In this document: piece by piece, positions 13,983-29,921 of the stretch
Layout: each line of letters opens with the position of its first letter
Position numbering within the stretch: position 1 is the stretch's first letter
DNA from: Trypanosoma brucei
Taxonomy: Eukaryota
Direction of reading: 5' to 3'
NCBI GenBank assembly: GCA_000002445.1
Contig: CP000071.1
Span: 1,504,001-1,568,000, forward strand
Length of the DNA: 64,000 nt
Made by a program: the position numbers and the translations under genes
Notes under the pieces: model-generated
What the model was told of the DNA's origin: nothing
Databases searched by the model: none
Seen by the model: the letters and a program-made list of their open reading frames with translations, nothing else

Positions 13983-14003
13983 CACACACACACACACACA
14001 CAC
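13983..14003. repeat. (CA)n microsatellite in the intergenic region
   Basis: cacacacacacacacacaga read directly, just downstream of the giant-ORF stop. Confidence 0.9.
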
Positions 14004-14110
14004 AGACAAACAGACGATCACACAAGCATATTCGTGGTAACGCCATGTATCTTAGTGTGGCCTGTTGCTGGAGAAGGGGAATACTCTGTTTGCATGATTC
14101 GAAGAAAGAT

Positions 14111-14353: not shown

Positions 14354-17300
14354 ATGAGGGGGTTGCTGTCTCACAATATAGGGGCAATGAAACATCCTGA
14401 GTACCCCCGAACGGATAGCGATGCTTCCTACACGCGGCCGCTCACTATGGATAGTGCTCGCGCAGCTTCGGTATCTGGGAGCGCGCAAAGTGGTTTACCT
14501 GTAGTGTCTTCCATGCAGAGGACACACCCCGGTTCCCCACGCACTACGGTTGCGTGGGATCGGCGCGACGCCAACGCTGGAAAGGCTGAGCCACAAACGG
14601 CTATCGATATGCTGGCGACAGCGTTGTTGCAGCCCTCGCCAAAGGCGTTTGTGGAGTCCGCTCACATTAACCGCTCGTCCACCCCCAAAAAGGTGCGTAC
14701 GCCACCGGTGAAGCACGGTTCACCAAACAAGCAAGGTCCCCGGTGTCACGCTCGGTCGAGCAATGGAGGGACTGACGGTGCCCTACGGCTGAAAGCCACC
14801 ACTCGCTCAGAGAAGCCGGAAGAAGTGCCCCCGGTGGGTACCGGATGCTCTGCTACTGATGGTGCCAAACTGACAACTGACGAAAGGGTTCTAATAGGGA
14901 GGACTGCGTCGGATTTGTACCTCTTTTCAAAAACGAAGACAAAGGGAGGAAGGAGTGTGGGCCGGCAAAGGAAGCGTCTTGAGGGACAAGCGTCAGAGAT
15001 GACCATTGCGGGGAAGCGTGTTTGTGTACATGAGAAGACCCCAGCAACTTCTCGCAAGGATCAGCTGCTCGCACATCCCAACATGGTTATGACAACTAGT
15101 AATGGCAGTGACAGCCAGGATAGTTCTCAGACGACCGATTCAAGGGATGGGTGGTGGGAAGAGGGGAAGGGGCAGGTTGTAAACCCACTCAGCGTCACTA
15201 AGTTAAAGGTTCACCAAAGTGTTGACGATGGTGACACACCCTTGCCGATTTCCATTGACGTAATGTGTTCCACACCCGACAATTCTGAGGAGATCGCCGA
15301 TAGCGTTAGCTCAGTGGGGAGCTCACTGTGCAGTGGCACCGCGTCTCTGGTCAAGGGTCAAATGGACATTATTCCCAACCTCACGGAGGAAAATGGTTCT
15401 GATCAAGGTGTCTCCCATAGGGGAGAAGACCTAAGCGGCGAGGTTAAATCGAAGGAATCATCGCAGTTACTGGTTGGTGAAAATGGAGTCCTTGATGCGC
15501 AAAGGCGTCTTTCGTCAGTGAAGAAGGCATCTGATTTCAGGCTCCAGAGCGCCGGAGCAAAGCCGCCAGGAAAGTTGGTTGCAACCGGCGAAAGCCTGCG
15601 CGGTGCCGGTGATTCCTGCGAGAGTGCCGCACACAAAGTAGAGGAGATAAGCAAGAAAACTATGGAGGTGCTGGACCAAGTACGAAATAGTTGTTTGACA
15701 GTGGCTCCAGCACCTACCAACATCGCGACGGGGAGCCCCCCTGGTGTGTCCGTTGCAAGGAATCCATCCAATGTTAGTTCCATCAAGCCCATTTCGTGTG
15801 GCTCCGCCGGCTGTAGGAAGAACCAAGAAGCGGTAGTGAGTGAGAAGACTAGTAAAGATTTGGCCATAGAGGAGCAGCGTGTTCTCATGGGGTACCTTTC
15901 AGCGTCCGAGTTGGATCTCTCCATGTCAACCTTCAAGCAGATTGGATGCTCTCTCCGAGTCTCAAAAGCACTTCGTGTGCTGAACCTGAAGGGCTGCACG
16001 GCAAGTGAGAAGGGACTGTGTGGCCTGTCAGAGGTTGAAAGTTTAGAGGTTGTGTGTGTTTCACATATGCGAAACCTTACCTCCCTGACAGTACTGGCTA
16101 CGCGTCAGGATGGTCTCTCGTCAAATATCCGAGAGATCGACGCCCGGTGCAGTTCTGTTACCAGTGCTGGTCTTTCGGGGTTAGACAAGATGACGTGCCT
16201 CTCTAAACTCAACCTAAGCCTCACACCAGTGACGAGTGTGAGTCTGCTCGGGGGATCAACTTCCCTGATGGAGCTGAATCTTTCCGGCACTGCTGTGACG
16301 AGCGATGGGCTACTTGGGTTGGAGAAGATTCCCTCACTGACCACACTCAATCTCAGTCGCACTAAAGTAAAGTCACTCCAAAAGATTGCCGAATCGCAGA
16401 CGCTGGAAAATCTAAATCTGTACTCGTGCAGGGTTGATACCAGTGATGTGCGGGGAGTGGAGTGTATGCCTCGGTTGAAGTCCCTTGACTTCAGTACCAC
16501 AAAAGTGTCCGACCTTTCGTTTCTTTCCTCAAGCCCTTCACTGAAAACGTTGAGGGCACAGTGGCTTACTTTGAGGAATTGTGGTGGTATTACTGAGGGT
16601 CGGTACAGCAAGCGTAACATTTCTGGTGGGGATACAAAATTATTCGACTTTATTGGAAACATAAGGGGAAATAACTTTCCGTGCTGGGAAGACCCTGGAA
16701 AAGAGGACCAAGACGTCGAAGCCGGTGTTTGTGGGTTGGCCAAAATACCCACGCTAGAGTTTGTCGATTTATCGTATAGTTCGGTTAGCAGTGTTCGTTC
16801 GTTGTTTTCTAGCAAATCAATCGAGACGATTGTGTTGCGCCGCACCCCGATTGACGACAATGGTATCAAAGATATTGGGCAGCTTCAAACGCTGAAGACG
16901 CTTGTGATTAATAATTTGGGCGATCTCATCTCCGAAGGCGGTGACGAGAATTTATCTGAGACGAAGGGCGTTTTAGTTTCTGTCAAAGATATTACACTGG
17001 CTTTCGGCATGGTTATCCTCGACCTATCCTTTACGGACGTCTATGACCTTCGTATGATAACGTCTTTAAAATGTCTCAAGGAACTATATCTTGTGGAGAC
17101 CCTCATCACCGTCGACGGAATCCGTGGGGTGGAACAATTACCTTCTCTTCGGCTGCTCGATATTTCCCAGACAAGTGTACTTTCGTTGGATTTCCTCTCG
17201 GAGGGATGCAAGGCGCTGGAGCAGTTATTTGTCAAATCCAACCGTAATACAAGCGGCTTTTGTATCGGAAAAATATATCGCCTTCCCATGCTTAAGGAAC

Positions 17301-17920
17301 TCGACGTCAGTGACACTGTTGTAGAGGACATTTCGGCACTCCTGCATTCTTCATGCACACTTCAACGGTTTGTTTGCCGTTGGGGGGAGCGGAGGGTCGC
17401 AAATGGCCTAACGGAGCCGTTGACTCCTTGGTTGCGACCTGCGTTGCTAGATGGCATGGATGCGCTTCCCCATTTGGAAAGCATTGATTTCACAAACTCC
17501 ACCCTTCGATCCGTCACGTTCCTCGCCCGTTCACGTTCGCTTCGGCGTATTGTGTTGGGGCGGAGCAGTAATCTTTCGAACAACGGCATCGGTGGTCTCG
17601 CCCAGATCCCAACTTTGGAGGCGTTGGACCTTAGTTTTTGTGCTCGCATCAGTGACGTGCGGCCACTTGTATCATCGTCTTCTTTGCAGGAGTTAAGGTT
17701 AGTTGGAACCGGTGTGACGGCTGTCGGACTCCACGGCGCATTGCAAATGAAGGCGCTGAAACTTTTAGATGTCACGGGAACTCCCGCAGCAGACGAATTG
17801 AGTGGTATTAGTAATGAGGGAGGCCCGGTGCTTGTGGTTAAGGGCGGTGAGGCGTGCAGCACAAACTTTCCTTCATTATTCAGGCGGTGCCGAACAAGTC
17901 CTGTTGTGATACTACAGTAA
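14354..17920 (+). CDS. Leucine-rich repeat protein (1188 aa): Ser/Thr-rich disordered N-terminal half, then ~20 or more tandem LRRs in the C-terminal half
   Basis: Repeated LxxLxLSxTxVxxLxxL units run from about aa 520 to the C-terminus, e.g. LNLSGTAVTSDGLLGLEKIPSLTTLNLSRTKVKSLQ, LDLSFTDVYDLRMITSLKCLKELYL and LDLSFCARISDVRPLVSSSSLQELRL. This architecture resembles trypanosome LRRP/ESAG8-type LRRs. No RING or other catalytic domain was seen. Confidence 0.75.
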   Translation: MRGLLSHNIGAMKHPEYPRTDSDASYTRPLTMDSARAASVSGSAQSGLPVVSSMQRTHPGSPRTTVAWDRRDANAGKAEPQTAIDMLATALLQPSPKAFVESAHINRSSTPKKVRTPPVKHGSPNKQGPRCHARSSNGGTDGALRLKATTRSEKPEEVPPVGTGCSATDGAKLTTDERVLIGRTASDLYLFSKTKTKGGRSVGRQRKRLEGQASEMTIAGKRVCVHEKTPATSRKDQLLAHPNMVMTTSNGSDSQDSSQTTDSRDGWWEEGKGQVVNPLSVTKLKVHQSVDDGDTPLPISIDVMCSTPDNSEEIADSVSSVGSSLCSGTASLVKGQMDIIPNLTEENGSDQGVSHRGEDLSGEVKSKESSQLLVGENGVLDAQRRLSSVKKASDFRLQSAGAKPPGKLVATGESLRGAGDSCESAAHKVEEISKKTMEVLDQVRNSCLTVAPAPTNIATGSPPGVSVARNPSNVSSIKPISCGSAGCRKNQEAVVSEKTSKDLAIEEQRVLMGYLSASELDLSMSTFKQIGCSLRVSKALRVLNLKGCTASEKGLCGLSEVESLEVVCVSHMRNLTSLTVLATRQDGLSSNIREIDARCSSVTSAGLSGLDKMTCLSKLNLSLTPVTSVSLLGGSTSLMELNLSGTAVTSDGLLGLEKIPSLTTLNLSRTKVKSLQKIAESQTLENLNLYSCRVDTSDVRGVECMPRLKSLDFSTTKVSDLSFLSSSPSLKTLRAQWLTLRNCGGITEGRYSKRNISGGDTKLFDFIGNIRGNNFPCWEDPGKEDQDVEAGVCGLAKIPTLEFVDLSYSSVSSVRSLFSSKSIETIVLRRTPIDDNGIKDIGQLQTLKTLVINNLGDLISEGGDENLSETKGVLVSVKDITLAFGMVILDLSFTDVYDLRMITSLKCLKELYLVETLITVDGIRGVEQLPSLRLLDISQTSVLSLDFLSEGCKALEQLFVKSNRNTSGFCIGKIYRLPMLKELDVSDTVVEDISALLHSSCTLQRFVCRWGERRVANGLTEPLTPWLRPALLDGMDALPHLESIDFTNSTLRSVTFLARSRSLRRIVLGRSSNLSNNGIGGLAQIPTLEALDLSFCARISDVRPLVSSSSLQELRLVGTGVTAVGLHGALQMKALKLLDVTGTPAADELSGISNEGGPVLVVKGGEACSTNFPSLFRRCRTSPVVILQ

Positions 17921-18285
17921 CCCTACAGTGAGAAGAGATGCCTTGCGCTTCGTTTGTTCACATGACGCATGATCGGCGTGCTTTTACACTTATATCTGCG
18001 AAGCTCGTGTTTCTTCCTTTTTATTTTTTTAAAAAAAGCTTCAATGTTTTAATGGGGCGGCGATGTGAAACGTGGGGCTACGAGCGTGAGGTGAACTCGG
18101 CTAATTATTATGAGCAGGAGAAGAGAGAAGTGGTGAGGGCGGTACTGCGCGCCGTGAAGACATGTGTAATATTTGCACTGCGTGAAATTGAATCATGAAG
18201 AGGAATGGAGATGACACGGGTTGATGTAGAAGAGAGGAAAAAATTTCTAGTAGTAGCGGTTTCGTAGTGACGAGTATAGTTAATT

Positions 18286-18290
<5 letters not shown>

Positions 18291-18318
<28 letters not shown>

Positions 18319-18320
18319 GT
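18291..18320. repeat. (TA)n microsatellite
   Basis: tatatatatatatatatatatatat read directly. Confidence 0.9.
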
Positions 18321-19446
18321 TTGATAATACGGTTGTGAGGATATGCAGTGACCAGCAAAGTAATAGAGGTATAAAGTGAGGCATAAGGAGGGCAATGAAT
18401 GACTGTCCGATGGTGGCCAAACAACAACGACTGCAACAATAAAATGGAAGAGAGGATTTGGTGGGGAGTCTCACGTGTCATAATGACAATTGGGTACGTG
18501 ATTGTTTACTTGTGTTACATCACTTAAACCCACACACCCACTCTTTCTACCTTTCTGTCTGTTTTTCTAGTTCCCAAGGAACTAACTTACCCTTTTGTTC
18601 TTTTTTTTCTTTTCCTCCTTTTTTTTATTTTGGCCATGCATGTGGTTAAATGCACTGCTCCACATGCAAAAGGAGCCAATAGCCGCCGTTGTAACGTTGT
18701 AGTTACCATTCTTGTCGTTATCATTATTACCAAGGCTTCGACCGTCGGGTTTCTCTTTCTCTCTTTTTTTCTTTTTGATCTTGCCCTTGCTCTTGCTTTT
18801 GCCTTTGTTTCTGTTTCTGTCCTTTGTTTTATGTTTATCTGTTTGCATTCCTACGAACACAAATAAATTGCATGCACAAACGCATTATATATATTTATGC
18901 ACATATATATATGTATATATTTGCGTGCTTGTGTGTGAATTTTATTTCTATATTTATTCGTTTACCTTTTTTTATATTTATATTTCATGTGTTCACCGTG
19001 TGATTTTTACCTGTCGGAATATGCAACTGGATGAATGTTGTTACAATTATTATTGTTATCATTATCAATGCTATTATTAATAATATGACCACTACTTACT
19101 TTTCCACTTACTTATATTGCCACGAACTTTTTGTTTTTTTTTTTGGTACGCTTAACCGTGACTCTGCACCACGAATAAAATGAAGAGGTGAAGGAGGGAA
19201 GGAAGGAAGGAAAAAAAAAAAGAAAAAAGAAAATAAAACGAAAAGAAGGGGAGACGGCCGTGAGGTGTTTTTTTTTTTTGGGGAGAAAAAAAAACAATAA
19301 TAAAGAGGAAAGAGGAGAAAAGGCATTTCCTTTTTGCATTTGTGGTTTCGTTACAATGGCGTTCGTCCCTTCTTTTTCTTTTCTTTTCTTTTTTTTCTTA
19401 AATGTTCCTTTTGTTGTTACTTATTTTTGTATTTGTGTGTGTCAGT

Positions 19447-19448
<2 letters not shown>

Positions 19449-19477
<29 letters not shown>

Positions 19478-19478
19478 C
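19449..19478. repeat. (TA)n microsatellite
   Basis: aaatatatatatatatatatatatatatgcg. Confidence 0.9.
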
Positions 19479-19719
19479 GTGGGTGAAGGAAATGGGAACA
19501 ATTTTCACATGAAGCAAAAAAATAAAATAAAAAGGAAAAAAAAAGGAAAAAAAAAGAAGAAAATTGGATGAGGAATGAAGGGGAGGAAAGAAGAAGAAAA
19601 AGAAGAGGAGGTAAAATAATAATTAAAAAAAAAAAAGAGCACAAAAGACATAATGAAGCAAAAAAAAAAGGAAAAAGGAAAAAGGAAAGGAAAGGAAAAA
19701 GTGAAAATGAATATATGCA

Positions 19720-19724
<5 letters not shown>

Positions 19725-19763
<39 letters not shown>

Positions 19764-19860
19764 AATATATATATATATGTTTATACGCTGAGACATGTTA
19801 TCAAAACGAAACGAAACAAAACAAAACAAAAAACCAAAAAAAACAACAACAACAACAACA
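19725..19860. repeat. Compound microsatellite: (TG)n/(TA)n, then (AAAC)n and (CAA)n
   Basis: tgtgtgtatatatatatatatatatatatatatatatgtaaatatatatatatatg ... aaacgaaacgaaacaaaacaaaacaaaa ... caacaacaacaacaacaacg. Confidence 0.9.
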
Positions 19861-20888
19861 ACGAGTACACCTTATGGATAGCAAAAGGGGGTTATTATGA
19901 TCATATAAATATGTGGTCTTTACATACGTGTGATTATTATATACAATTATATTCAGAATTGTTCATTTATTCGCATCACACATTCATTCATTCATTCAAA
20001 AACATATACACATATGAATTTTGTATGAATAAGCACACTTATGTACTCATATAACTTTTCCTCTTTGATTTTGTTTTATTTTCTGTCTTATCATTTAGGT
20101 TGCTTCCGTTTGGTATTCTCTGTGTTATATTCCATTTATTTTTCTAAAAAAAAAGGAAATAATAATTTTTTTTGTTTGTCTCACTGGTCTCTATTACTTC
20201 CTTCCATTTTTATGCTTTCACAAATAAGGCGGCTCTGACTATTATTATTGTTATTATTATTTGGTGGAAAAAAAGGCAAAACAAAAAAAAAAAAAGAACA
20301 GGAGTAAACACCAAATGTAAGCTACCAGGTGCGAAGGCACAAAAAAACAAAAAAGGAAAAATAACAGAGGGAAGGAGACAAACAACCGGGGACACATACA
20401 AAAAGGAGAAAAGAAATGAAAAAAAAAGAAGAGAAATTATTACTTACACATGGCTTCACATGAAAACATGAGAATTGTATACATGATCATATATTTTTGA
20501 AAAAAAAAATGCATGAAAAACACTTACACTTATATGTTTACAAATTTATGCTAATGTGTTATTGCGGCCACTAAAAAGAAAACAAAAAAAACCTAACGGG
20601 TGCTCGGACAAAAAAAGAAAAAAAGTGGAAATGAAGGGATGAAGGGTTTAAACATTTCAAGATATTTATCAAATATAATTTAAATAAATATATATGCAAG
20701 TGAAAAAGGATATGTATGAATAGAGATGAAAGATAAAAAAAATGTAGGTTTATGTCTCAGGGTTGAAAGAAGGAAAAAAATAAAAAGAAAAAATAACAAC
20801 ACCACCACATCCATTTCTTTTTCTCTTTTTTTTTTTTTTACAAAATTTCCTTTTTCCCCCTTTTTTCCTTTTTTTTTTGTTTTAAATG

Positions 20889-20915
20889 TTTGTGCTTGTG
20901 CTTGTGCTTGTGCTT
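20889..20915. repeat. (TTGTGC)4 hexanucleotide repeat
   Basis: tgtgcttgtgcttgtgcttgtgctt. Confidence 0.9.
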
Positions 20916-22782
20916 TTTTTTTTCCTTCATTTTCTCATCCCTCTGATTTTCAGTAGTGTCAGCGGTGTAAAATTTGTAGAATGGATTCATCGGTTAATTT
21001 TTTTTTTATGTGTGTGTATGTTTGATTTTTTTTTCTTTTTTTCTTCCACCTTTGTTTAAATATGAACAATTTTTTTTTTCCAAATAAAAAATGTATAGTG
21101 GTGTTAAAACACATAACGGAGGTGATGAAGTGCATGCTTCTCTATTTTGTTCCCATTTGTTTGTTGTTTTCTTTTTTCTTCTGTTTTTTCTTTTCTCTTT
21201 TTTCTTTTTTTTTTAAATATATTTGGTTGTGTGTGATTATTTGACTATTTGAAATGGCGTGTGAGAGGCCTCATTTTTGAGAATGCGGGGGAAATTAAAA
21301 AAAAGAAAAAAGAACAGGAGTGATAAAATGATACAAATAAAAGTTTTTTTTTTTAAAAAAAATAAAAAAGAGGGAAGGTGAGTGAAGGAGAGGGGAAGTT
21401 TTTTCTTTTTCTTTTGTTTTTTTTAATTTATGTTCTTGGAATTAGTGAACTCAACTGTCCACCTGTTCATTTTACTTTTTTTTTTTTAGTTAATTCATTT
21501 CGGTTTTATTATTTTTCTTATTTCTACTTTTATGCAATAATTTCTCTGCTTTGTGATGATCTTTAGTGCTAAGAACGAAAAGTGAGAGGGAAAGGGGGGG
21601 GGGAAAATAAAAATATAAATATATATGTTTATAAAATAAAACAAGACAGAACAAAACAAAACAAAATTTAAAATAAAAACCCATACTTTTATGTTTTAAT
21701 TTAGCGTTCGCCAAGCTGCGACGGATGTTTTATCTGTCTTATGCGTGTATGTGTATGCATGTGAGTGTGTCCGTGTCTGTAAAAGTCAGCTCATAAATAA
21801 TTATATATATAAGTATTTATATATATATTTATTTATTTATAAATACAAATGCAAGTTTTCATTCTTCAAAAATGAAAACATTTCACCCATTCAAACACAT
21901 TCGCATGCACACAAAAAGAAAAAAAAAGAAGAGGATTATATTTAAAAAAAAATGGACAAAAAGCGTTCAGCCGAGGGAGGGAAGTGGAGAGAAACTGTGA
22001 AGGGTTTCACATATTAAGAGGGAAAATGCAAAATTAAAGGGGGAGGGGGAAAAAAGGAGTCAAGAATGTGTTAGCCTTATGATTATTTTAACAGTTGTTT
22101 TTATTTTTTTTATTTATTTATGTTTTTTTTTTTTCGCCTCCCAGTGTTTGCCTGCACCAGCGTCGATGTTCTGTTTTGTGTCTGTGTGATTTCCGATTCT
22201 TATTTTCCCGCTTCTGCTTTCGTCTTTAATCTTTTTTTAAAAAAAATGTTTCAAAGCGGTTTATTTATTTATTTATTGTGTTGTAGTTTTTTTTTGTGTG
22301 TGTTTACTCTCGTGTTCACCTTTTACTTGATCCACTCTTTTTGTTTTGTTTTCCTTTATTTTCCTTTTTTGTTTTTAAGTCTTATTTTTAGCGTCGTTTG
22401 GTTCCGCTATTTATCCGCTCCATTTGAGCCCGCGAATGAACATATCTGAAGAACCGTATTTGTCTTTTTTTTTTGTTTTTTTGTTTTGTTTTGGAGTATG
22501 TGGCTGTTTTTCCCCCCATCTTTTTTTCCCCTTTTCCTTTTTTTTTTCCCTTCCCTTCCCTTCCCCTTCCCTTTCTTTTTTTTCTTTTAAATTAAAAAAA
22601 AAAACAATTATTTTTACACTGCTTTCTAGTTTTTTTTTTTGAAGAAAAAAAGAAAAGAAAAACAATATTATTGATCTCTCACTCCCTCTTCATATTGACT
22701 CTCCCCCTCCCATAATATATATGAGTTTATACAAATATTCATTATCACAAGGAGACGCCACTAATAATAAATACTGTCGTTT

Positions 22783-22914
22783 ATTCTTTTGTTCTCTTTT
22801 TTTTTTTTGTTAAATATCTGCTTTATGCATTTATTACACATTTTTTTCTTGTTTATTCTCCCTATATTTATCTTAATGTTTCCTGCACTTACACATGTGG
22901 GTATCATTAAAGAG
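22783..22914 (+). promoter_or_regulatory. Long polypyrimidine tract plus AG upstream of cytochrome c, followed by an unusually A-rich 5' leader
   Basis: ttattcttttgttctcttttttttttttg...tttttttcttgtttattctccctatatttatcttaatgtttcctgcactt, then aaAGAG at ~22911-22914. About 145 nt of A-rich sequence lies between this site and the ATG at 23060. Confidence 0.45.
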
Positions 22915-23059
22915 TTTTTTTTTAAAAAGAAAAAACAAACCAACAACAGCATCAGCAATAATAATAATAACAACAATATATTAACAAAAAAGTAAAAAAA
23001 AAGAAGAAGAGAAAAGAAATAATTCAAAAAAAAAAAGAAAAATAAAAGAATAAAAGTAA

Positions 23060-23404
23060 ATGCCACCAAAGGAGCGTGCAGCACTTCCACCCGGTGACGC
23101 AGTGCGTGGGGAGAAACTTTTTAAGGGCCGGGCGGCGCAGTGCCACACGGGTACAAAAGGCGGTTCCAACGGTGTTGGGCCTAATTTATATGGAATTGTT
23201 GGCCGTAAATCCGGAACTGTTGAGGGTTTTACGTACAGCAAAGCCAATCAAGATTCCGGTGTTATGTGGACTCCGCAGGTACTTGACGTGTATTTGGAGA
23301 ATCCAAAGAAATTTATGCCCGGCACTAAAATGTCTTTTGCAGGTTTAAAGAAACCACAGGAACGCGCCGACCTCATCGCATACCTCGAGACATTAAAGGA
23401 CTAA
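23060..23404 (+). CDS. Mitochondrial cytochrome c (114 aa) with the kinetoplastid single-cysteine haem-binding motif AxxCH
   Basis: [31 protein letters not shown]...[13 protein letters not shown]...[31 protein letters not shown]. This is the canonical class I cytochrome c fold, including the Met ligand region (PGTKMSF), but the CxxCH motif is replaced by AAQCH. That replacement is the hallmark of euglenozoan cytochrome c. Confidence 0.95.
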
Positions 23405-23577
23405 AATGAGATAATAGAAAAATTTATAATATTTATAATATAACTACATTATTGAAAATTTATGTTATCATACATGTATTATTAAAGCAGAGGATGGAAG
23501 GAAGAAAGGAGGGGGGGGGTTATGTTATGATGGCAAGGATTCCATTATTATTATTATTATTTTACTTTGTGGCTATC

Positions 23578-23612
23578 GTTATCATTATCATTATCATTAT
23601 CATTATCATTAT
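23578..23612. repeat. (ATCATT)n hexanucleotide repeat, about 5 units
   Basis: atcattatcattatcattatcattatcatt, about 170 nt downstream of the cytochrome c stop. Confidence 0.9.
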
Positions 23613-24242
23613 TTATATTTGTTATTTGGGACTATGAGACGAGCAAGAAAACGAAGGAAAACATGACCAATAGTTAATGTTAATGTTAATGTTATTGTTT
23701 TTTTAATTTTTTTTTGTTTTTGATAAGAGGAAAAAGAAGAAGAGACGCCATGAAGGAAAAGAAAAGAAGAACATAAATGAATTACAAAACGAAAATGAAA
23801 AGAAACACAAATCAAAGTAGAATTAAGTGAAACTAAATTTAAAGATGTGTGTGGTGTTGTCACCGTAAATGTTCCTATGCCATGAGAGGTTTATTTTATT
23901 TTTTGAACCTATCAAGATTCTTCTTTTTTTTTTCCTTTTCGTTCCCTTCCGCTCCATTTGCCGGAAAACTACGGTGCGACTTCACATTAATTTAGTGTTT
24001 TGTCTCTTTTGTTTCCCCCCTCCTGACTTTTTGCCATGTCAGAAGAGCAAAATAAAAAACAAAATGAAAAGGAGGAAAAAAAATAAAAATAAAAAAGAAA
24101 AGAGCAAAAGAGGGATGTACGTTATGATGGGGATGGAGGGGGGGGGAGGGAATTTTAAACCGCAACAATACACATTTATATTTTTTATATTTATGAATGC
24201 AAACATGAAAAGGGTGAATAAAAAGAATAAACAGGAACAAAA

Positions 24243-24377
24243 ATATGTAAAAGGATGGAGATTGGGGAGGGGAGGAGGAGGAGGAGGAGGAACAGAGGAA
24301 TATTGCGGTGTGCAATTTTTTGTCTTTGTCTTTTTCTTTTTTTATTTTTATTTTTATTTTTCCCTCCCCTCCCCAAT
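24243..24377. repeat. Inverted repeat (stem ~24-25 bp, spacer ~85 nt) with G-rich and C-rich arms, overlapping a (GGA)n tract
   Basis: The left arm is ggatggagattggggaggggag at 24243-24267. The right arm is ctcccctccccaatctccatcc at 24353-24377, an exact reverse complement of the left arm, read by eye. A (GGA)7 run follows the left arm. Confidence 0.7.
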
Positions 24378-25369
24378 CTCCATCCTCCTCTTGCACTTTA
24401 ACGATACGTAAGGTGTTTTGTTATTGAAAAGAGGAGTGTTTGTGTGGCAGGCCAAGTATTACAAGGAGAATAAAACAAACAAATAAAAGAGCAAACAAAC
24501 AAAAGGAAAAGGAGGGATTCAAAAAAGAAAAAGAAAAGAGGAAAGGGAAGCGACCGCAACTCCCTGAGTTCTAAGAACTTTCTTAATCCATATACATGGG
24601 GTAAATACATTTATAAGGGATAATTGAAATAATAATAATAATAATTAAAAAAAATCAAGACAGAACGCAACAGGATATACATCTATATCTATATTATTGT
24701 TATTATTATCGGCCTAAAAAAAATTTCTCGCAATAGTTTTGTTTTTTTTGTCTATGTGCCCGTGTGCTTGTGTTTTTGTTTGTTCCCTTTGTTGTGGGCA
24801 TTTCCAGCGGCCGCATCTTTACAGCCATCACAATTAAGCCCATCAAATGACCGCTCCATGCATTACTCTTCTTCCTATTTCTACTCCATTTCGTCTTATT
24901 ATTATTACTGTTGTTGTTGTTGTTGTTTTTATTGTTATGAACTTTATTGTTGCATATACTCGGTTCTTCATGTATTTTGCCTCCGCATGTCACCTTTCGT
25001 TTTGCTTCATTTCTATTTTTCCCTTTCCCCCCTCCGCCCTCTGGTCTCCTCCTCATCCTTTTGCGTGTGAAGCAGAGGGAAAAAGAGGTGAGGTAGCGGT
25101 AAAAAATAAATTTCCTTTCATAAAGTTACAAATGTTTGTAGGCTTGCATATTTATTAGGGAAGTTGGGTATATAAACATGTAGGAAACAGGTTTGCCGTG
25201 TCGTTCCTTCCGTTCATGCTTAATATAAGCCGTGTGGATATTTGTGACATGTGTGATTATGTTGAGTTATGTCTTGTGACTTACCAGGGATAAGGCCTGA
25301 AAACGGAGTAGTGGAGGAAGCGGACGAGACTGAAACGGTAAGACAGTGTGAACCTCCGCACTGACCTCA

Positions 25370-25444
25370 GTTTTTTCGCCCTTTTTTTCCTGCTTTTTTT
25401 TATTTTCCATTTGATTGATTATCTTTTTTTTTTTCTTTCTGGAA
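25370..25444 (+). promoter_or_regulatory. Polypyrimidine tract plus AG upstream of the 578-aa ORF
   Basis: ttttttcgccctttttttcctgcttttttttattttccatttgattgattatctttttttttttctttctggAAG. AG at ~25443-25444. First ATG at 25691. Confidence 0.5.
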
Positions 25445-25690
25445 GTGACCTCTCTTTTGTAGTGGTAGTGTTGGTGGATAGCGTTGTGGTGCAAAATCTG
25501 CCCCGTTGAGCGTCCGTTAGACGAGGCGTCACGGCCTGCCAATAGAGGCGGAGTTGTCAAAAGTATAATAAATTAAACGGGCACTCACAACAACAACAAC
25601 AGTAACCAAACACCGCTTGTGCCGAAAGTGGAAGAAAAGGGAGAGTGAGGCAGCAGGTGAAGGAGAGGGGCAGTAGATATTCTTTTGGCA

Positions 25691-27424
25691 ATGCAGCATC
25701 ACTTCCACCTCAATCGCAGTTTCGATATGCAGTTGTCTCCCGTTGCAGCCTCTATTATCGACTGGGCTCCAGCTGGCCGCACCGGTACCGTTGGGAATTC
25801 CCACACTCCCGCATGTTCCCTTCCAACTGTAGGCGTAAACGGGTCACACACTCATGCGGTGGATTCGACGTCATTAAGCGGTGCGGCTAAACTTAAACCT
25901 GCTGAAAATCTCTCTGGCATGCGGGTGCTGCACCGGTGCACTCGGCAGTTGCTTGCCAATTCGTGCGTGTTGGTGCCGATCTTTTCACGGGGTACGTTTA
26001 ATGTGAATGCGGGGCTGCTCGCTTCTCTCGGTCTGACCGGCGGGTGGAACGATGCCTGCTCGCGGCCTTCCGGTTTCCACGCCAATGATGTGCTGCAATT
26101 GGAGGCGACGTGGGGCAAGAGGCAATGGGCGGGGATATTTAACTTGGTGTGTTTCTCTTGGATGTCTACCACTCTTCCCCTATTTGAGTTTATTACGGTG
26201 TCACCTCGGACAGATTCGTCGCTGCAGGTCGACCGACTGATGTTCAACTGGAGCGGTTTCTGGCGGGTGTTCGTTTCGGGTGACGGCAGTCGCCGAAATT
26301 CGCTCATATCGATGGATTCCCCCGCTGAAAGGTTTGTCGCTGACGTACCTGTTGCGCCCACTGGGAAACTACCTGACGAGAGTAAGTTGGGTGGTGTTAC
26401 CGGTGTTGATAAAAAACATGACGGGCTTTCCACTACGCCTCCGATTACCTCTAATGGTGATGATACAAGACGTGGAGGTGCCATCAGTACTGGAAAAAAA
26501 GTAAAGGTTGGTAATACCAGTGGCAATACCACTTCAATGAATGGCGATAGCGGTAGCGGCACGGCAGGGGTTTGCATGAAGAAAAGGGAAGAAGTTGCTG
26601 AGCCTGTCAGTGGCTCGAGTAGTGAGTTATGCGCCGAAACACAGAAGGTGGGTCGGTGGTGGAGGATTCGAGAGTTGCGCTGCGGTGTAGGTGTTGCTCT
26701 GAAAAATGACATCGTGAGTGCAGCAAACGCTTACTTTGGTTATAGCTTCCACCTGGGTCGAGCACTAACTTTCTCCTCGCATGTGGATGTTCTCCGTCGC
26801 GGCTGCTACTCCGTCACATGCAGCACCGATCGCTTCGACCTCGCCACGCGTCTGCGTGTCAACCACATCACATCGCATTTCACCGAGATGGATGCTGGAA
26901 TTGGTTGGCGGCCGCTACGGCACGTACCTGGCTTTACGTGCCGCCTCTCGTACTCGATGGGCCGCACATCGATGGGTTTTACTGCCCGTGATGTTACTAC
27001 TCACTGGGGTTTGGCGGCTCACAGAACTGAAACTCCGGTGCAGGCCACAGCGGTTCTACCACCACCGCTATCTTCCCTCCCTGTCCCCGTTGCTGTGGAG
27101 TCAAGGGGAGCTTTGTTACAGTTGTGGGACGCTAGCGTGGACTGGGGGCTGAGTGCAGCTCATTTAGTGCTTGGTACTCTTTTACCTTCATTAACTGGGA
27201 GCGCAGCAGCGGGGCGGCGGGTTGTAAAGGAGGGGGAGGAGGTGGAGGTTCCGGAGCATAAACCCAGGCAGTGGAATCGTCTCTCTCGAGCATTTCTTGC
27301 TGGTGTCAGCTACTGTAAAGCTTCGGTAACACAGGCGAAATTTGACCTCACGATGGGGGTGGCGACGCAGCAACCGAGACAATCGAGGCCTCTGAGGTTC
27401 TTTTTTGTTGTTTCAGCCTACTGA
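25691..27424 (+). CDS. Hypothetical protein (578 aa from the first ATG; the track opens at a TTG at 25685). The N-terminal half is Ser/Gly/Thr-rich and the C-terminal ~260 aa is beta-strand-rich, ending ...LRFFFVVSAY
   Basis: Long ORF on the same strand with coding-like composition. The C-terminal domain shows alternating hydrophobic/polar dyads (GVGVALKNDIVSAANAYFGYSFHLG, FDLATRLRVNHI, FTCRLSYSMG, AKFDLTMGVAT) and a terminal aromatic residue. No known motif was recognised. Confidence 0.6.
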   Translation: MQHHFHLNRSFDMQLSPVAASIIDWAPAGRTGTVGNSHTPACSLPTVGVNGSHTHAVDSTSLSGAAKLKPAENLSGMRVLHRCTRQLLANSCVLVPIFSRGTFNVNAGLLASLGLTGGWNDACSRPSGFHANDVLQLEATWGKRQWAGIFNLVCFSWMSTTLPLFEFITVSPRTDSSLQVDRLMFNWSGFWRVFVSGDGSRRNSLISMDSPAERFVADVPVAPTGKLPDESKLGGVTGVDKKHDGLSTTPPITSNGDDTRRGGAISTGKKVKVGNTSGNTTSMNGDSGSGTAGVCMKKREEVAEPVSGSSSELCAETQKVGRWWRIRELRCGVGVALKNDIVSAANAYFGYSFHLGRALTFSSHVDVLRRGCYSVTCSTDRFDLATRLRVNHITSHFTEMDAGIGWRPLRHVPGFTCRLSYSMGRTSMGFTARDVTTHWGLAAHRTETPVQATAVLPPPLSSLPVPVAVESRGALLQLWDASVDWGLSAAHLVLGTLLPSLTGSAAAGRRVVKEGEEVEVPEHKPRQWNRLSRAFLAGVSYCKASVTQAKFDLTMGVATQQPRQSRPLRFFFVVSAY

Positions 27425-28193: not shown

Positions 28194-29921
28194 ATGTCGT
28201 TATCTAACGTTGTTGCAAATAACACTATGATGGGAGTTCATAAGAACAACTCTGGCATTGGTAATGGGAATAAATCTCAAGATAATGATACTGGAAAAGG
28301 AGGGGGTGATACCGATAACAACGCTGAAACAACGGAGCAGAAGACTCACTATCAATACGTTCTTGCCATTGTCAATCCATTGGCTGGTGAAACCGGTACG
28401 TCGGGATACATTACTGAGAACCTAGTGTCGTTTTTTGGTGAGGAACGCGTGGTTCTGCTTAATAAAGACCTCTTCGCCGATCCCGCACCTTTACATGAGG
28501 CCATCCGCAAGTATGCTGTGCGATACATGTCGGACGAAGAGGAAGAAGAAGAGGAAACAAAAGGCACGGAGGTGGATGTTCGGTTGCCAACAGACGCTGT
28601 GGATGATCGTGGGACCGTCTTCGTTTCTGGTGGGGATGGAACAGTTTCTTACATTATGGATCAGATGGACGCGGTGCGGGAGATCGTAGAGAAGGAGGTG
28701 GGCAATAACGCGCGCGGTGAAGCCACCCCACGGGGGAAACCAATTTTTCCCGCTTTAGCGGTTCTTGCGTTTGGCACAGGCAATGACTTTTCAAACTGTG
28801 TAGGGTTCGGCCGTGGTTACAGTCGTGGAGGCAAATGTGGACCGCTGTGCAAAGAAGATTTGATTGAACATTATGTTCAAAAAGCCCTTACCGCTCGCAG
28901 TACACCGTTTGACCGCTGGGTGATGCAAGTAGTGCCCATGTCAGTGGCATGCAGGCAAAATGAGCGAGCCCAGCAGGGGGATGGGGGGGAGGAGGAGGAG
29001 CCACAGTCGCCGGACGGACAAAAGAGCAGTGTGACGCAAGGTGGACTTCATGATTTGTTTATTGATTGGGACGCACTAACTGATGACCCTGATTGCAAGA
29101 TTTACCGCTTCATTAACTATGTTAGTGTCGGGTTCGATGCATATGTGACACACAGGTTCAGCACATTTCGCAAAAACAACCCAAAATTCTGCAGTAAACG
29201 TTGGAGAAATAAGGCCGTATATTGTTGTTTTAGTTTTCGTGCGGCGGTAAGTTGTTCCCCACTGAAGGGGTGTGTTCCGAGTGTTTGGGTTAGTGAATCG
29301 ACGTGTGGAGAAGGGGGATACGTTTCCCCTGCCGGGAGTGGGTCCCACATGACGAATGTGCAACTTCCCAGTGGAAGTAAAACATTAATGCTTACCAACG
29401 TCACCTCATACGCAGCGGGGACAAAACCATGGAACGCGGGGAGCGGCAAACTGTACCGCAAAGGATCAAGTAAGAGCACAGCTTCAATCACACCGGTATG
29501 TGTGAATGACCGAAAGTTGGAGGTGCAAACTCACAGCGGCCTTATCCACATGGGAATGATGCAAATGAATGCGGGGAAAGGAGCAAACAAAATTTCTCAA
29601 ACCAACGACGTCATCTTCTTCGTTTCGTGCTGCCCAGAGGACATCTACAAGGGTAAGCATCAACAACCACCGGCGCGTGAGGGGGAAGGAAAGCAGTCGA
29701 AGATGAACCTGGAGGGCGCAGCAAACAACTTGAAGAAAGAAAGCAAGGAGTCAGTGTCTCTTTACGTACAGTTGGATGGGGAACCTATAATGATTATTAC
29801 CACCCCAAGTATAGTACGGATCAGGGAACTGCGCACACCCCGCGTATACGTGCGTTGTCTGAATGAAGATGTGCTTCTCGAGTCACCATCAGAAGAAGGA
29901 ACAGAAGGGGAAGGGGCGTGA
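28194..29921 (+). CDS. Diacylglycerol kinase-like lipid kinase (DAGK catalytic-domain family), 575 aa
   Basis: The DAGKc signatures are YVLAIVNPLAGETG (substrate/ATP loop), VFVSGGDGTVSYIMDQMD (GGDG motif) and LAFGTGNDFSNCVGFG (compare PLGTGNDLARCLGWG in DGKs). There is an acidic insertion SDEEEEEEETKG and Gly/Asn/Asp-rich N- and C-terminal tails. Confidence 0.7.
   Translation: MSLSNVVANNTMMGVHKNNSGIGNGNKSQDNDTGKGGGDTDNNAETTEQKTHYQYVLAIVNPLAGETGTSGYITENLVSFFGEERVVLLNKDLFADPAPLHEAIRKYAVRYMSDEEEEEEETKGTEVDVRLPTDAVDDRGTVFVSGGDGTVSYIMDQMDAVREIVEKEVGNNARGEATPRGKPIFPALAVLAFGTGNDFSNCVGFGRGYSRGGKCGPLCKEDLIEHYVQKALTARSTPFDRWVMQVVPMSVACRQNERAQQGDGGEEEEPQSPDGQKSSVTQGGLHDLFIDWDALTDDPDCKIYRFINYVSVGFDAYVTHRFSTFRKNNPKFCSKRWRNKAVYCCFSFRAAVSCSPLKGCVPSVWVSESTCGEGGYVSPAGSGSHMTNVQLPSGSKTLMLTNVTSYAAGTKPWNAGSGKLYRKGSSKSTASITPVCVNDRKLEVQTHSGLIHMGMMQMNAGKGANKISQTNDVIFFVSCCPEDIYKGKHQQPPAREGEGKQSKMNLEGAANNLKKESKESVSLYVQLDGEPIMIITTPSIVRIRELRTPRVYVRCLNEDVLLESPSEEGTEGEGA

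Follow-up and report, generated by a model that had tools for sequence, protein, structure and literature searches.

Long 3' untranslated regions as the probable content of the repeat-rich DNA around the cytochrome c gene of Trypanosoma brucei

The cytochrome c locus and its mapped transcripts

The cytochrome c gene of Trypanosoma brucei, Tb927.8.5120, is set in 7.8 kb of repeat-rich DNA (positions 17921-25690) that contains no other credible open reading frame (ORF). The window, i.e., the whole stretch of DNA analysed, is 64,000 nt of T. brucei TREU927 chromosome 8, and a window position is the chromosome position minus 1,504,000. This offset was adopted because the published coordinates of the cytochrome c coding sequence (CDS), 1527060-1527404 on Tb927_08_v4 (Kolev 2010, Table S3), match window 23060-23404. 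Further, the 3' untranslated region (3'UTR) of the upstream gene, Tb927.8.5110, as printed in the S1 text of Mugo & Clayton 2017, begins ACCCTACAGTGAGAAGAG and is identical to the window from 17921 onward. The local gene order, all on the + strand, is Tb927.8.5110 (14354-17920), which encodes a leucine-rich-repeat (LRR) protein, then cytochrome c, POMP41 (Tb927.8.5130; 25691-27424) and diacylglycerol kinase (28194-29921). We propose, with a probability of about 0.75, that the 7.8 kb is transcribed untranslated sequence within one RNA polymerase II (Pol II) polycistron, consisting of two long 3'UTRs plus processing signals. The features of the locus are as follows.

14354..17920, + strand: CDS of Tb927.8.5110, an ORF for a conserved LRR protein of 1,188 amino acids
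17921..20579, + strand: proximal 3'UTR of Tb927.8.5110 (TriTrypDB v5.1, 2,659 nt), with (TA)n arrays, polypurine sequence at 19177-19707 and (AAC)n
20580..22780, + strand: distal upstream flank, a putative extended 3'UTR isoform of Tb927.8.5110 or 3'UTR-derived RNA
22784..22929, + strand: cytochrome c trans-splicing signal, made up of a pyrimidine tract (22784-22808) followed by T-rich sequence as far as about 22900, with candidate AGs at 22911-22914 and 22928-22929
22930..23059, + strand: cytochrome c 5'UTR, A-rich, about 130-180 nt, with (AAT)7 at 22957-22978
23060..23404, + strand: cytochrome c CDS (Tb927.8.5120), 114 amino acids, PF00034, haem motif AAQCH
23405..24918, + strand: cytochrome c 3'UTR, predominant poly(A) site at 24903, with (TATCAT)n, (GTTAAT)n, G-runs and a hairpin
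24252..24386, + strand: predicted hairpin of the cytochrome c 3'UTR; its stem, of 24 perfect base pairs (24252-24275/24363-24386), is extended by (GGA)n against a U/C-rich strand
24919..25690, + strand: processing spacer and predicted POMP41 5'UTR, with a pyrimidine tract at 25371-25408 and first AG at 25444 (a sequence prediction)

A single Pol II unit, with all genes on the + strand and no internal start, was mapped from Tb927.8.4900 to Tb927.8.5330 (Kolev Table S14). Within it, the published RNA ends of procyclic cells divide the interval between two mRNAs. The cytochrome c transcript extends from window 22879 to 24918, with flagged alternative 3' ends (Kolev 2010, PMC2936537, Table S3), and its 3'UTR has an average length of 1,283 nt and a predominant length of 1,499 nt (Tables S3, S13). 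The Tb927.8.5110 3'UTR is much longer, averaging 4,438 nt, with 5,073 nt as the predominant length and a dispersion of 640 (Kolev 2010, PMC2936537, Table S13), and from these values the averaged poly(A) site lies near window 22360. The genome-wide median for T. brucei 3'UTRs is 388 nt, with a range to about 6,000 nt. The Tb927.8.5110 3'UTR is among the longest reported for this organism. The first 2.66 kb of the upstream flank is secure as Tb927.8.5110 3'UTR, the sequence in the Mugo & Clayton 2017 S1 text starting ACCCTACAGTGAGAAG at window 17921 and having a length of 2,659. The upstream flank is mostly or wholly the 3' tail of the LRR gene mRNA and lies outside the mature cytochrome c mRNA. 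Since the upstream 5.1 kb is assigned to another gene's mRNA, it would have no cis action on mature cytochrome c mRNA. An earlier reading of this DNA from the sequence alone (below, the sequence-only reading) had taken both flanks of cytochrome c as the unusually long UTRs and spacers in which control elements of that gene would be expected. The flanks are indeed transcribed untranslated sequence, as the Kolev ends show, but the upstream 5.1 kb is assigned to Tb927.8.5110.

As proposed here, the interval would have four parts. The first would be an unusually long Tb927.8.5110 3'UTR of 2.66 kb or more, its mapped poly(A) sites reaching 4.4-5.07 kb; the second, the cytochrome c trans-splicing signal of pyrimidine tract plus AG, followed by the A-rich 5'UTR of about 130-180 nt; the third, a cytochrome c 3'UTR of 1.3-1.5 kb with alternative poly(A) sites; and the fourth, a processing spacer of about 0.5 kb plus the POMP41 5'UTR. 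Any function would be post-transcriptional, through RNA-binding proteins acting on each mRNA's own 3'UTR. Pyrimidine tracts are plentiful in the upstream flank, where 15 tracts of at least 25 nt are found. Eleven lie in the distal segment (20580-22780), including a cluster at 20814-20944, whose first AG is at 20952, and an 82-nt tract at 22507-22588. Such internal tracts may be potential cryptic splice and poly(A) signals, and their use would account for dispersed, discordant 3' ends.

Around the cytochrome c and POMP41 genes, the arrangement is like that of ordinary intergenic processing regions, with a pyrimidine tract plus AG 5' of each start codon and poly(A) sites 5' of the tracts; in published data, poly(A) site and splice site are a median of 142 nt apart. 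Unlike ordinary processing regions, the unit here is surrounded by 5 kb and 2 kb of untranslated sequence, with a tract density 2-5x that of neighbours. Near the candidate acceptor AGs of cytochrome c, the Kolev start is at 22879, and Logan contigs L003-L005 diverge from colinearity with the genome at 22925-22933. Contigs L003-L006 were rejected as evidence of transcript ends, as they are without the spliced leader and terminate at low-complexity runs. The A-rich 5' leader described in the sequence-only reading was borne out. Between the cytochrome c poly(A) site and the POMP41 signal there is a spacer of about 0.5 kb, as predicted from sequence.

The protein encoded at 23060-23404 is a kinetoplastid mitochondrial cytochrome c, given the PF00034 match on record and the AAQCH motif, of the AxxCH single-cysteine type, in the translation. 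We take this single-cysteine haem-binding motif to be the euglenozoan/kinetoplastid type. The protein has 99% identity to that of T. b. gambiense and 100% identity to the protein on a GCA_001457755.2 contig. For Tb927.8.5110, the LRR identity comes from faint LRR Pfam matches on the T. b. gambiense ortholog, and syntenic LRR orthologs are found in T. vivax, T. cruzi and Leishmania. The name POMP41 is taken from the T. cruzi ortholog of the gene starting at 25691. POMP41 diverges faster than its neighbours: between TREU927 and T. b. gambiense its CDS (25691-27424) has 1.4% nucleotide difference and 97% protein identity, compared with 0.25-0.7% nucleotide difference and at least 99% protein identity for the neighbours.

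Composition and divergence of the flanks

The flanks of cytochrome c, in which no credible ORF is found, measure 5,139 bp on the upstream and 2,286 bp on the downstream side, and the ten other + strand intergenic spacers of the window are 436-2,419 bp. The tail of the window is a 1,099-codon ORF running off the end, and because this tail is coding, no other spacer rivals the cytochrome c flanks in length. The flanks are also distinct in composition. GC content is 0.306 upstream and 0.358 downstream; the other spacers range from 0.378 to 0.468, and coding sequence has 0.525. The share taken up by perfect microsatellites is 10.7% in the upstream and 8.4% in the downstream flank, versus 0-5.6% in other spacers and 0% in coding sequence. 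The interval makes up 12% of the window and holds about 104 of the 139 rows that Tandem Repeats Finder reports for the 64 kb. Blocks of at least 25 nt, pyrimidine and purine alike, number 2.5-2.9 per kb in the flanks versus 0-1.65 per kb in other spacers, and the density of pyrimidine tracts is 2-5x that of neighbouring spacers. The main repeats and blocks, the repeats being placed with Tandem Repeats Finder and by reading the sequence, are these.

18294, 19451 and 19728: (TA)n
19177-19254 and 19511-19707: polypurine blocks
19815-19862: (AAC)n
20890-20915: (TTGTGC)4
23574-23612: (TATCAT)6.5
23673-23699: (GTTAAT)4.5
24473-24503: (AAAC)n

All ORFs in the flanks are low-complexity and none has a Pfam match above the curated cut-off; the longest, 23869-24411, has frame-breaking indels in T. 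b. gambiense. Thus the sequence-only reading was accurate as description: its spacer of about 7.5 kb is the longest in the window and without a credible ORF, every simple repeat that it named was found, and its polypurine runs were located at the two positions listed above. This AT-rich, microsatellite-dense composition, with its purine and pyrimidine blocks, is the usual texture of trypanosome UTRs, here in extreme form.

The locus was compared with those of T. b. gambiense DAL972, the GCA_001457755.2 contig, T. vivax, T. cruzi, T. theileri, L. orientalis and RNA-derived contigs. For T. congolense, the search returned no POMP41 protein and no locus was retrieved for synteny. T. b. gambiense is colinear with the window, with a 100-N assembly gap (L002 8036-8135) in place of window 19853-21214 (1.36 kb). 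The GCA_001457755.2 contig (L001) ends, at the L001 start, at window 22596, 465 bp 5' of cytochrome c, and has 18 N at (ATCATT)n (L001 about 953-970). Given these gaps and the contig end in public assemblies, apparent strain differences in spacer length are assembly artefacts; the low-complexity DNA of the interval breaks short-read assemblies.

Relative to T. b. gambiense, the flanks have 1.7-4.3% substitutions, versus 0.9-1.4% at third codon positions, and 8-18 indel events per kb, versus 3-4 per kb in other spacers. From these sequence comparisons, the flanks appear to be under no overall constraint and to evolve, driven by replication slippage, at a roughly neutral rate. A few 200-bp windows with 0-1 substitutions were considered as candidates for selective constraint within T. 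brucei and rejected, being within Poisson noise at about 2% divergence. A short spacer 5' of the LRR gene, which holds a (CA)15 microsatellite at 13983-14012, has 3.3% substitutions versus T. b. gambiense. At greater distances, and for a trypanosome whose cytochrome c is 89% identical, only the CDS aligns after low-complexity masking (T. vivax, T. cruzi, L. orientalis, T. theileri and L011), and all the unmasked cross-species matches in the flanks are microsatellites. There are, accordingly, no conserved blocks beyond simple repeats, the outcome that the sequence-only reading had itself named as speaking against a regulatory view of the flanks.

In T. vivax, T. cruzi and L. orientalis, too, the spacers around cytochrome c are locally long. 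Upstream and downstream they measure 2.4 kb (46% GC) and 1.7 kb in T. vivax, and 2.0 and 4.2 kb in T. cruzi, where the 4.2 kb includes an extra gene; L. orientalis, which carries cytochrome c in two copies, has spacers of 2.4, 2.1 and 2.9 kb. Among these species, the 5 kb length and 31% GC of the upstream spacer are specific to T. brucei. The extra gene in T. cruzi (L009 7097-8683) is a real-looking gene, located between cytochrome c and POMP41, for a 528-residue protein that has a hydrophobic segment at its N-terminus and matches no Pfam family above the cut-off. T. theileri (L010 2458-9634) has several copies or fragments of this gene 5' of POMP41, and lacks a cytochrome c gene within 10 kb. 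The 528-residue gene is missing at the locus in T. brucei, T. vivax and Leishmania. The L. orientalis cytochrome c genes (L007 7601-7942 and 10001-10345) form a syntenic tandem pair 2.06 kb apart, with 86% and 83% identity to the T. brucei protein.

These gene contents could suggest that the extra length in T. brucei is a decayed relic, of a second tandem cytochrome c, of the additional T. cruzi gene or of a degenerate retroelement. The distance from the L. orientalis LRR gene to the second cytochrome c copy, with the copies 2.06 kb apart, is 4.85 kb, close to the 5.14 kb of T. brucei, and T. cruzi and T. theileri do carry the additional gene. However, a lenient tblastn search of the flanks with cytochrome c gave a best E of 0.45, the T. 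cruzi 528-residue protein had no match in the window by tblastn, and self-blastn gave no sign of an internal duplication linking the two flanks, nor did it match them to other parts of the window. We consider a relic to be hardly credible.

One RNA-derived sequence bears on the untranslated sequence in a related gene. Logan RNA contig L012 (SRR19411497), whose cytochrome c is 89% identical, starts with the spliced-leader suffix GTTTCTGTACTATATTG, has a 54-nt 5'UTR with (AAT)8 (both within L012 1-71), and has a 3'UTR of at least 500 nt rich in (TA)n and (TG)n. From L012 it follows that repeat-rich cytochrome c UTRs recur, as a texture rather than as conserved sequence. The (AAT)8 of the L012 leader and the (AAT)7 of the T. 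brucei leader could reflect shared ancestry or chance in AT-rich sequence.

RNA genes, RNA structure and DNA-level elements

The sequence-only reading had further suggested that clusters of small nucleolar RNA (snoRNA) genes could hide in the flanks. There are snoRNAs inside 3'UTRs elsewhere in T. brucei (Kolev 2010, PMC2936537, Figure S7 caption). At gathering score, no Rfam family matched anywhere in the 64-kb window, and no tRNA was found with ARAGORN. In a relaxed Rfam scan of 17700-25900 (8.2 kb), no snoRNA model, C/D or H/ACA, was matched at E <= 1. The matches at that level were mainly of microRNA-type hairpin models, on (TA)n and on the hairpin at 24252-24386, and were far below threshold; the remainder were chance matches to Plasmodium RNase P and two bacterial small RNAs, all far below gathering scores. 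Neither Tandem Repeats Finder nor self-comparison revealed the repeated unit of a snoRNA cluster. The interval is thus like the snoRNA clusters of polycistrons and 3'UTRs in location only, as a long non-coding stretch within a polycistron, and unlike them in having neither a snoRNA model match nor a reiterated unit. The suggestion of hidden snoRNA clusters found no support at gathering or relaxed thresholds.

In another reading, the distal half of the upstream flank (about 20950-22780) would yield an RNA of its own between Tb927.8.5110 and cytochrome c, either a spliced-leader-capped, polyadenylated non-coding RNA (ncRNA) or a stable fragment derived from the 3'UTR. The annotated 3'UTR end at 20579 is 235 nt 5' of the pyrimidine cluster at 20814-20944 with its AG at 20952, and a separate RNA is possible because coupled polyadenylation and trans-splicing normally show this spacing. 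Further, to judge from the dispersion of 640 nt in the Kolev data, poly(A) sites far upstream are used substantially, and fragments of this kind are documented for other long 3'UTRs: DRBD18 masks internal tracts in long 3'UTRs, and use of the tracts leads to shortened mRNAs and spliced-leader-capped 3'UTR fragments (PMC9380746). Against these points, the Kolev 2010 novel-transcript table has no chromosome 8 entry at 1,522-1,526 or 1,528 kb, and a nanopore list of long non-coding RNAs has no entry for 1.16-2.0 Mb of chromosome 8. The + strand ORFs are of 60-109 amino acids and low-complexity, the longest, 22120-22446, being without a Pfam match above the cut-off, and the sequence is not conserved. 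We hold a separate RNA to be doubtful, and return to the long Tb927.8.5110 3'UTR as the preferred assignment of this segment: no independent gene, start or known RNA gene was found inside it.

The sequence-only reading had also called the UTRs structured. Sliding 150-nt folds gave a median z of about -0.6 in the flanks versus -0.3 in other spacers and coding sequence, and every fold window with z < -3 coincides with (TA)n or with adjacent purine/pyrimidine blocks. A general excess of RNA structure was rejected, as low z values occur only at (TA)n self-pairing or purine/pyrimidine complementarity, and it is these that make up most of the apparent structure. The one discrete element is the hairpin at 24252-24386, whose predicted fold reaches -75.7 kcal/mol (minimum free energy; z = -7.2). 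Its stem differs in T. b. gambiense by three changes, all of them non-compensatory, and the hairpin was therefore rejected as a selected element.

Could the interval instead act as DNA? The proposals would be a transcription boundary or internal start, a replication origin, a centromere-like AT-rich region, or a hotspot for R-loops or triplexes. The interval includes the most AT-rich stretch of the window (28-30% GC), and its abundant mirror-like purine/pyrimidine blocks could form non-B DNA. However, it lies inside the single mapped Pol II unit, with no internal start and no strand switch, and the coding strand and the rising cumulative GC skew are unchanged across it. Centromeric or satellite repeats were not found: all repeat periods are at most 40 nt, copy number is at most 25.5 (a dinucleotide), and the longest array is under 80 bp. 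Finally, the interval carries the mapped poly(A) and splice sites of ordinary mRNAs. A DNA-level element is very improbable.

Regulation and assignment of the untranslated sequence

Cytochrome c mRNA is stage-regulated. In published data its level is 539-564 reads per million (RPM) in procyclic versus 56-89 RPM in bloodstream forms, i.e., 6-10x higher in procyclic forms, and it drops to 140-258 RPM when procyclic forms express RBP10. The mRNA is also enriched on stumpy-form polysomes. Cytochrome c is controlled in part through the stability of the protein (Torri et al. 1993, cited in PMC4845500), and that part is therefore beyond the reach of UTRs. The claim in the sequence-only reading that cytochrome c abundance is regulated through the life cycle holds for the mRNA, but its UTRs cannot explain the part due to protein stability.

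The RBP10 pull-down of Mugo & Clayton 2017 distinguishes the two mRNAs. Tb927.8.5110 was enriched 3.09-fold and 3.17-fold, and is in the sheet 'Both>3x reads>10', whereas cytochrome c mRNA was enriched 1.42 and 1.61-fold, below the binding threshold. With the RBP10 regulon taken as mRNAs enriched at least 3-fold in both replicates, Tb927.8.5110 is a member and cytochrome c is not. The stage bias of Tb927.8.5110 mRNA is modest, with a log2 procyclic/bloodstream ratio of 0.79 (padj 3e-9), and procyclic forms also translate it more efficiently. Since Tb927.8.5110 mRNA co-purifies with RBP10, its long tail is plausibly regulatory, for Tb927.8.5110 rather than for cytochrome c.

RBP10 targets are procyclic-specific mRNAs with UA(U)6 in the 3'UTR (Mugo & Clayton 2017). 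Tb927.8.5110 is like them in being bound more than 3x in both replicates and in having the motif, at 18022 and 22102, and the fall in cytochrome c mRNA upon RBP10 expression in procyclic forms is a further likeness. The locus is unlike RBP10 targets in that motif density is no higher than in dinucleotide shuffles and in that cytochrome c, at 1.4-1.6-fold, is sub-threshold. The motif UAUUUUUU is not enriched: it occurs twice in 4.9 kb versus 2.5 expected, and the cytochrome c 3'UTR has two (at 23897 and 24179) versus 0.7 expected. Enrichment of RBP10, PUF9, AU-rich element and PUF motifs was rejected as well, none exceeding composition save where microsatellites create the pattern.

The closest known systems are the multi-kilobase 3'UTRs of T. 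brucei, e.g., those of RBP10 (7.3-8.5 kb) and DRBD12 (mRNA about 8.4 kb), in which DRBD18 silences the internal tracts. The likenesses are several kb of low-complexity, AT/U-rich sequence, many internal pyrimidine tracts, heterogeneous or alternative poly(A) sites, and, for Tb927.8.5110 mRNA, a stage bias and association with an RNA-binding protein. The differences are that the Tb927.8.5110 stage bias is modest and that the length of its 3'UTR is disputed (2.66 vs 4.4-5.07 kb). By correlation with the RBP10 pull-down and the procyclic/bloodstream ratios, the long 3'UTRs would be regulatory platforms, and by analogy with the known systems their internal tracts may require masking by a DRBD18-type factor.

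An alternative is that both flanks are control regions specific to cytochrome c, with the upstream 5.1 kb acting on cytochrome c and small RNA genes hidden within. Consistent with this are the stage regulation of cytochrome c mRNA and the long cytochrome c spacers of T. vivax, T. cruzi and Leishmania (2.0-2.4 kb upstream, 1.7-4.2 kb downstream). However, trans-splicing near 22880-22930 removes the upstream 5 kb, which is assigned to Tb927.8.5110, from cytochrome c mRNA. There is no snoRNA or tRNA match and no repeated cluster unit, and no conserved block lies outside the CDS. Further, the extreme length and AT-richness are T. brucei-specific, the T. vivax spacer being 2.4 kb and 46% GC. Such cytochrome c-specific regions are quite improbable.

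Several observations weigh against the assignment to two long 3'UTRs that we prefer. The 3' end of Tb927.8.5110 is inconsistently annotated, with 2,659 nt in TriTrypDB versus 4,438 and 5,073 nt in Kolev, and the distal 2.3 kb depends on poly(A) sites possibly contaminated by the A-rich cytochrome c leader. The predominant Kolev site (window 22993) is 3' of the cytochrome c transcript start, inside that leader and at the end of an A9 run. The Kolev abundance for Tb927.8.5110, 18.4 RNAs per cell, is nearly that for cytochrome c, 18.8, each estimate being made from a 500-nt window at the transcript 3' end. Because of the site in the leader, the 3' abundance window and the near-equal abundances, we suspect cross-assignment of reads: cytochrome c reads or mispriming may account for part of the signal at the distal poly(A) sites of Tb927.8.5110. 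The UAUUUUUU count is within composition, 32 of 200 dinucleotide shuffles reaching the cytochrome c 3'UTR count. Lastly, the near-neutral divergence between subspecies and the lack of distant alignment are compatible with the presence of short protein-binding motifs.

In sum, the interval is an ordinary, known kind of sequence whose ends are already in published tables, and its significance beyond annotation is small. For reporter tests of cytochrome c mRNA, the correct fragment is the cytochrome c 3'UTR, with its 1.5 kb, alternative ends and one strong hairpin. A more elaborate possibility, which we think unlikely, is that the distal 1.8 kb (about 20950-22780) is released as its own spliced-leader-capped, polyadenylated ncRNA, with stage-dependent use of tracts that are masked by a DRBD18-type factor. 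If this were true, the choice of 3' end for the LRR mRNA would be tied to the efficiency of cytochrome c trans-splicing, and processing, rather than decay, would set part of the 6-10-fold difference between stages in cytochrome c mRNA. More generally, the first task with a large "empty" interval beside a regulated trypanosome gene is to find the mRNA to which it belongs, here that of the upstream gene, before giving it a regulatory reading.

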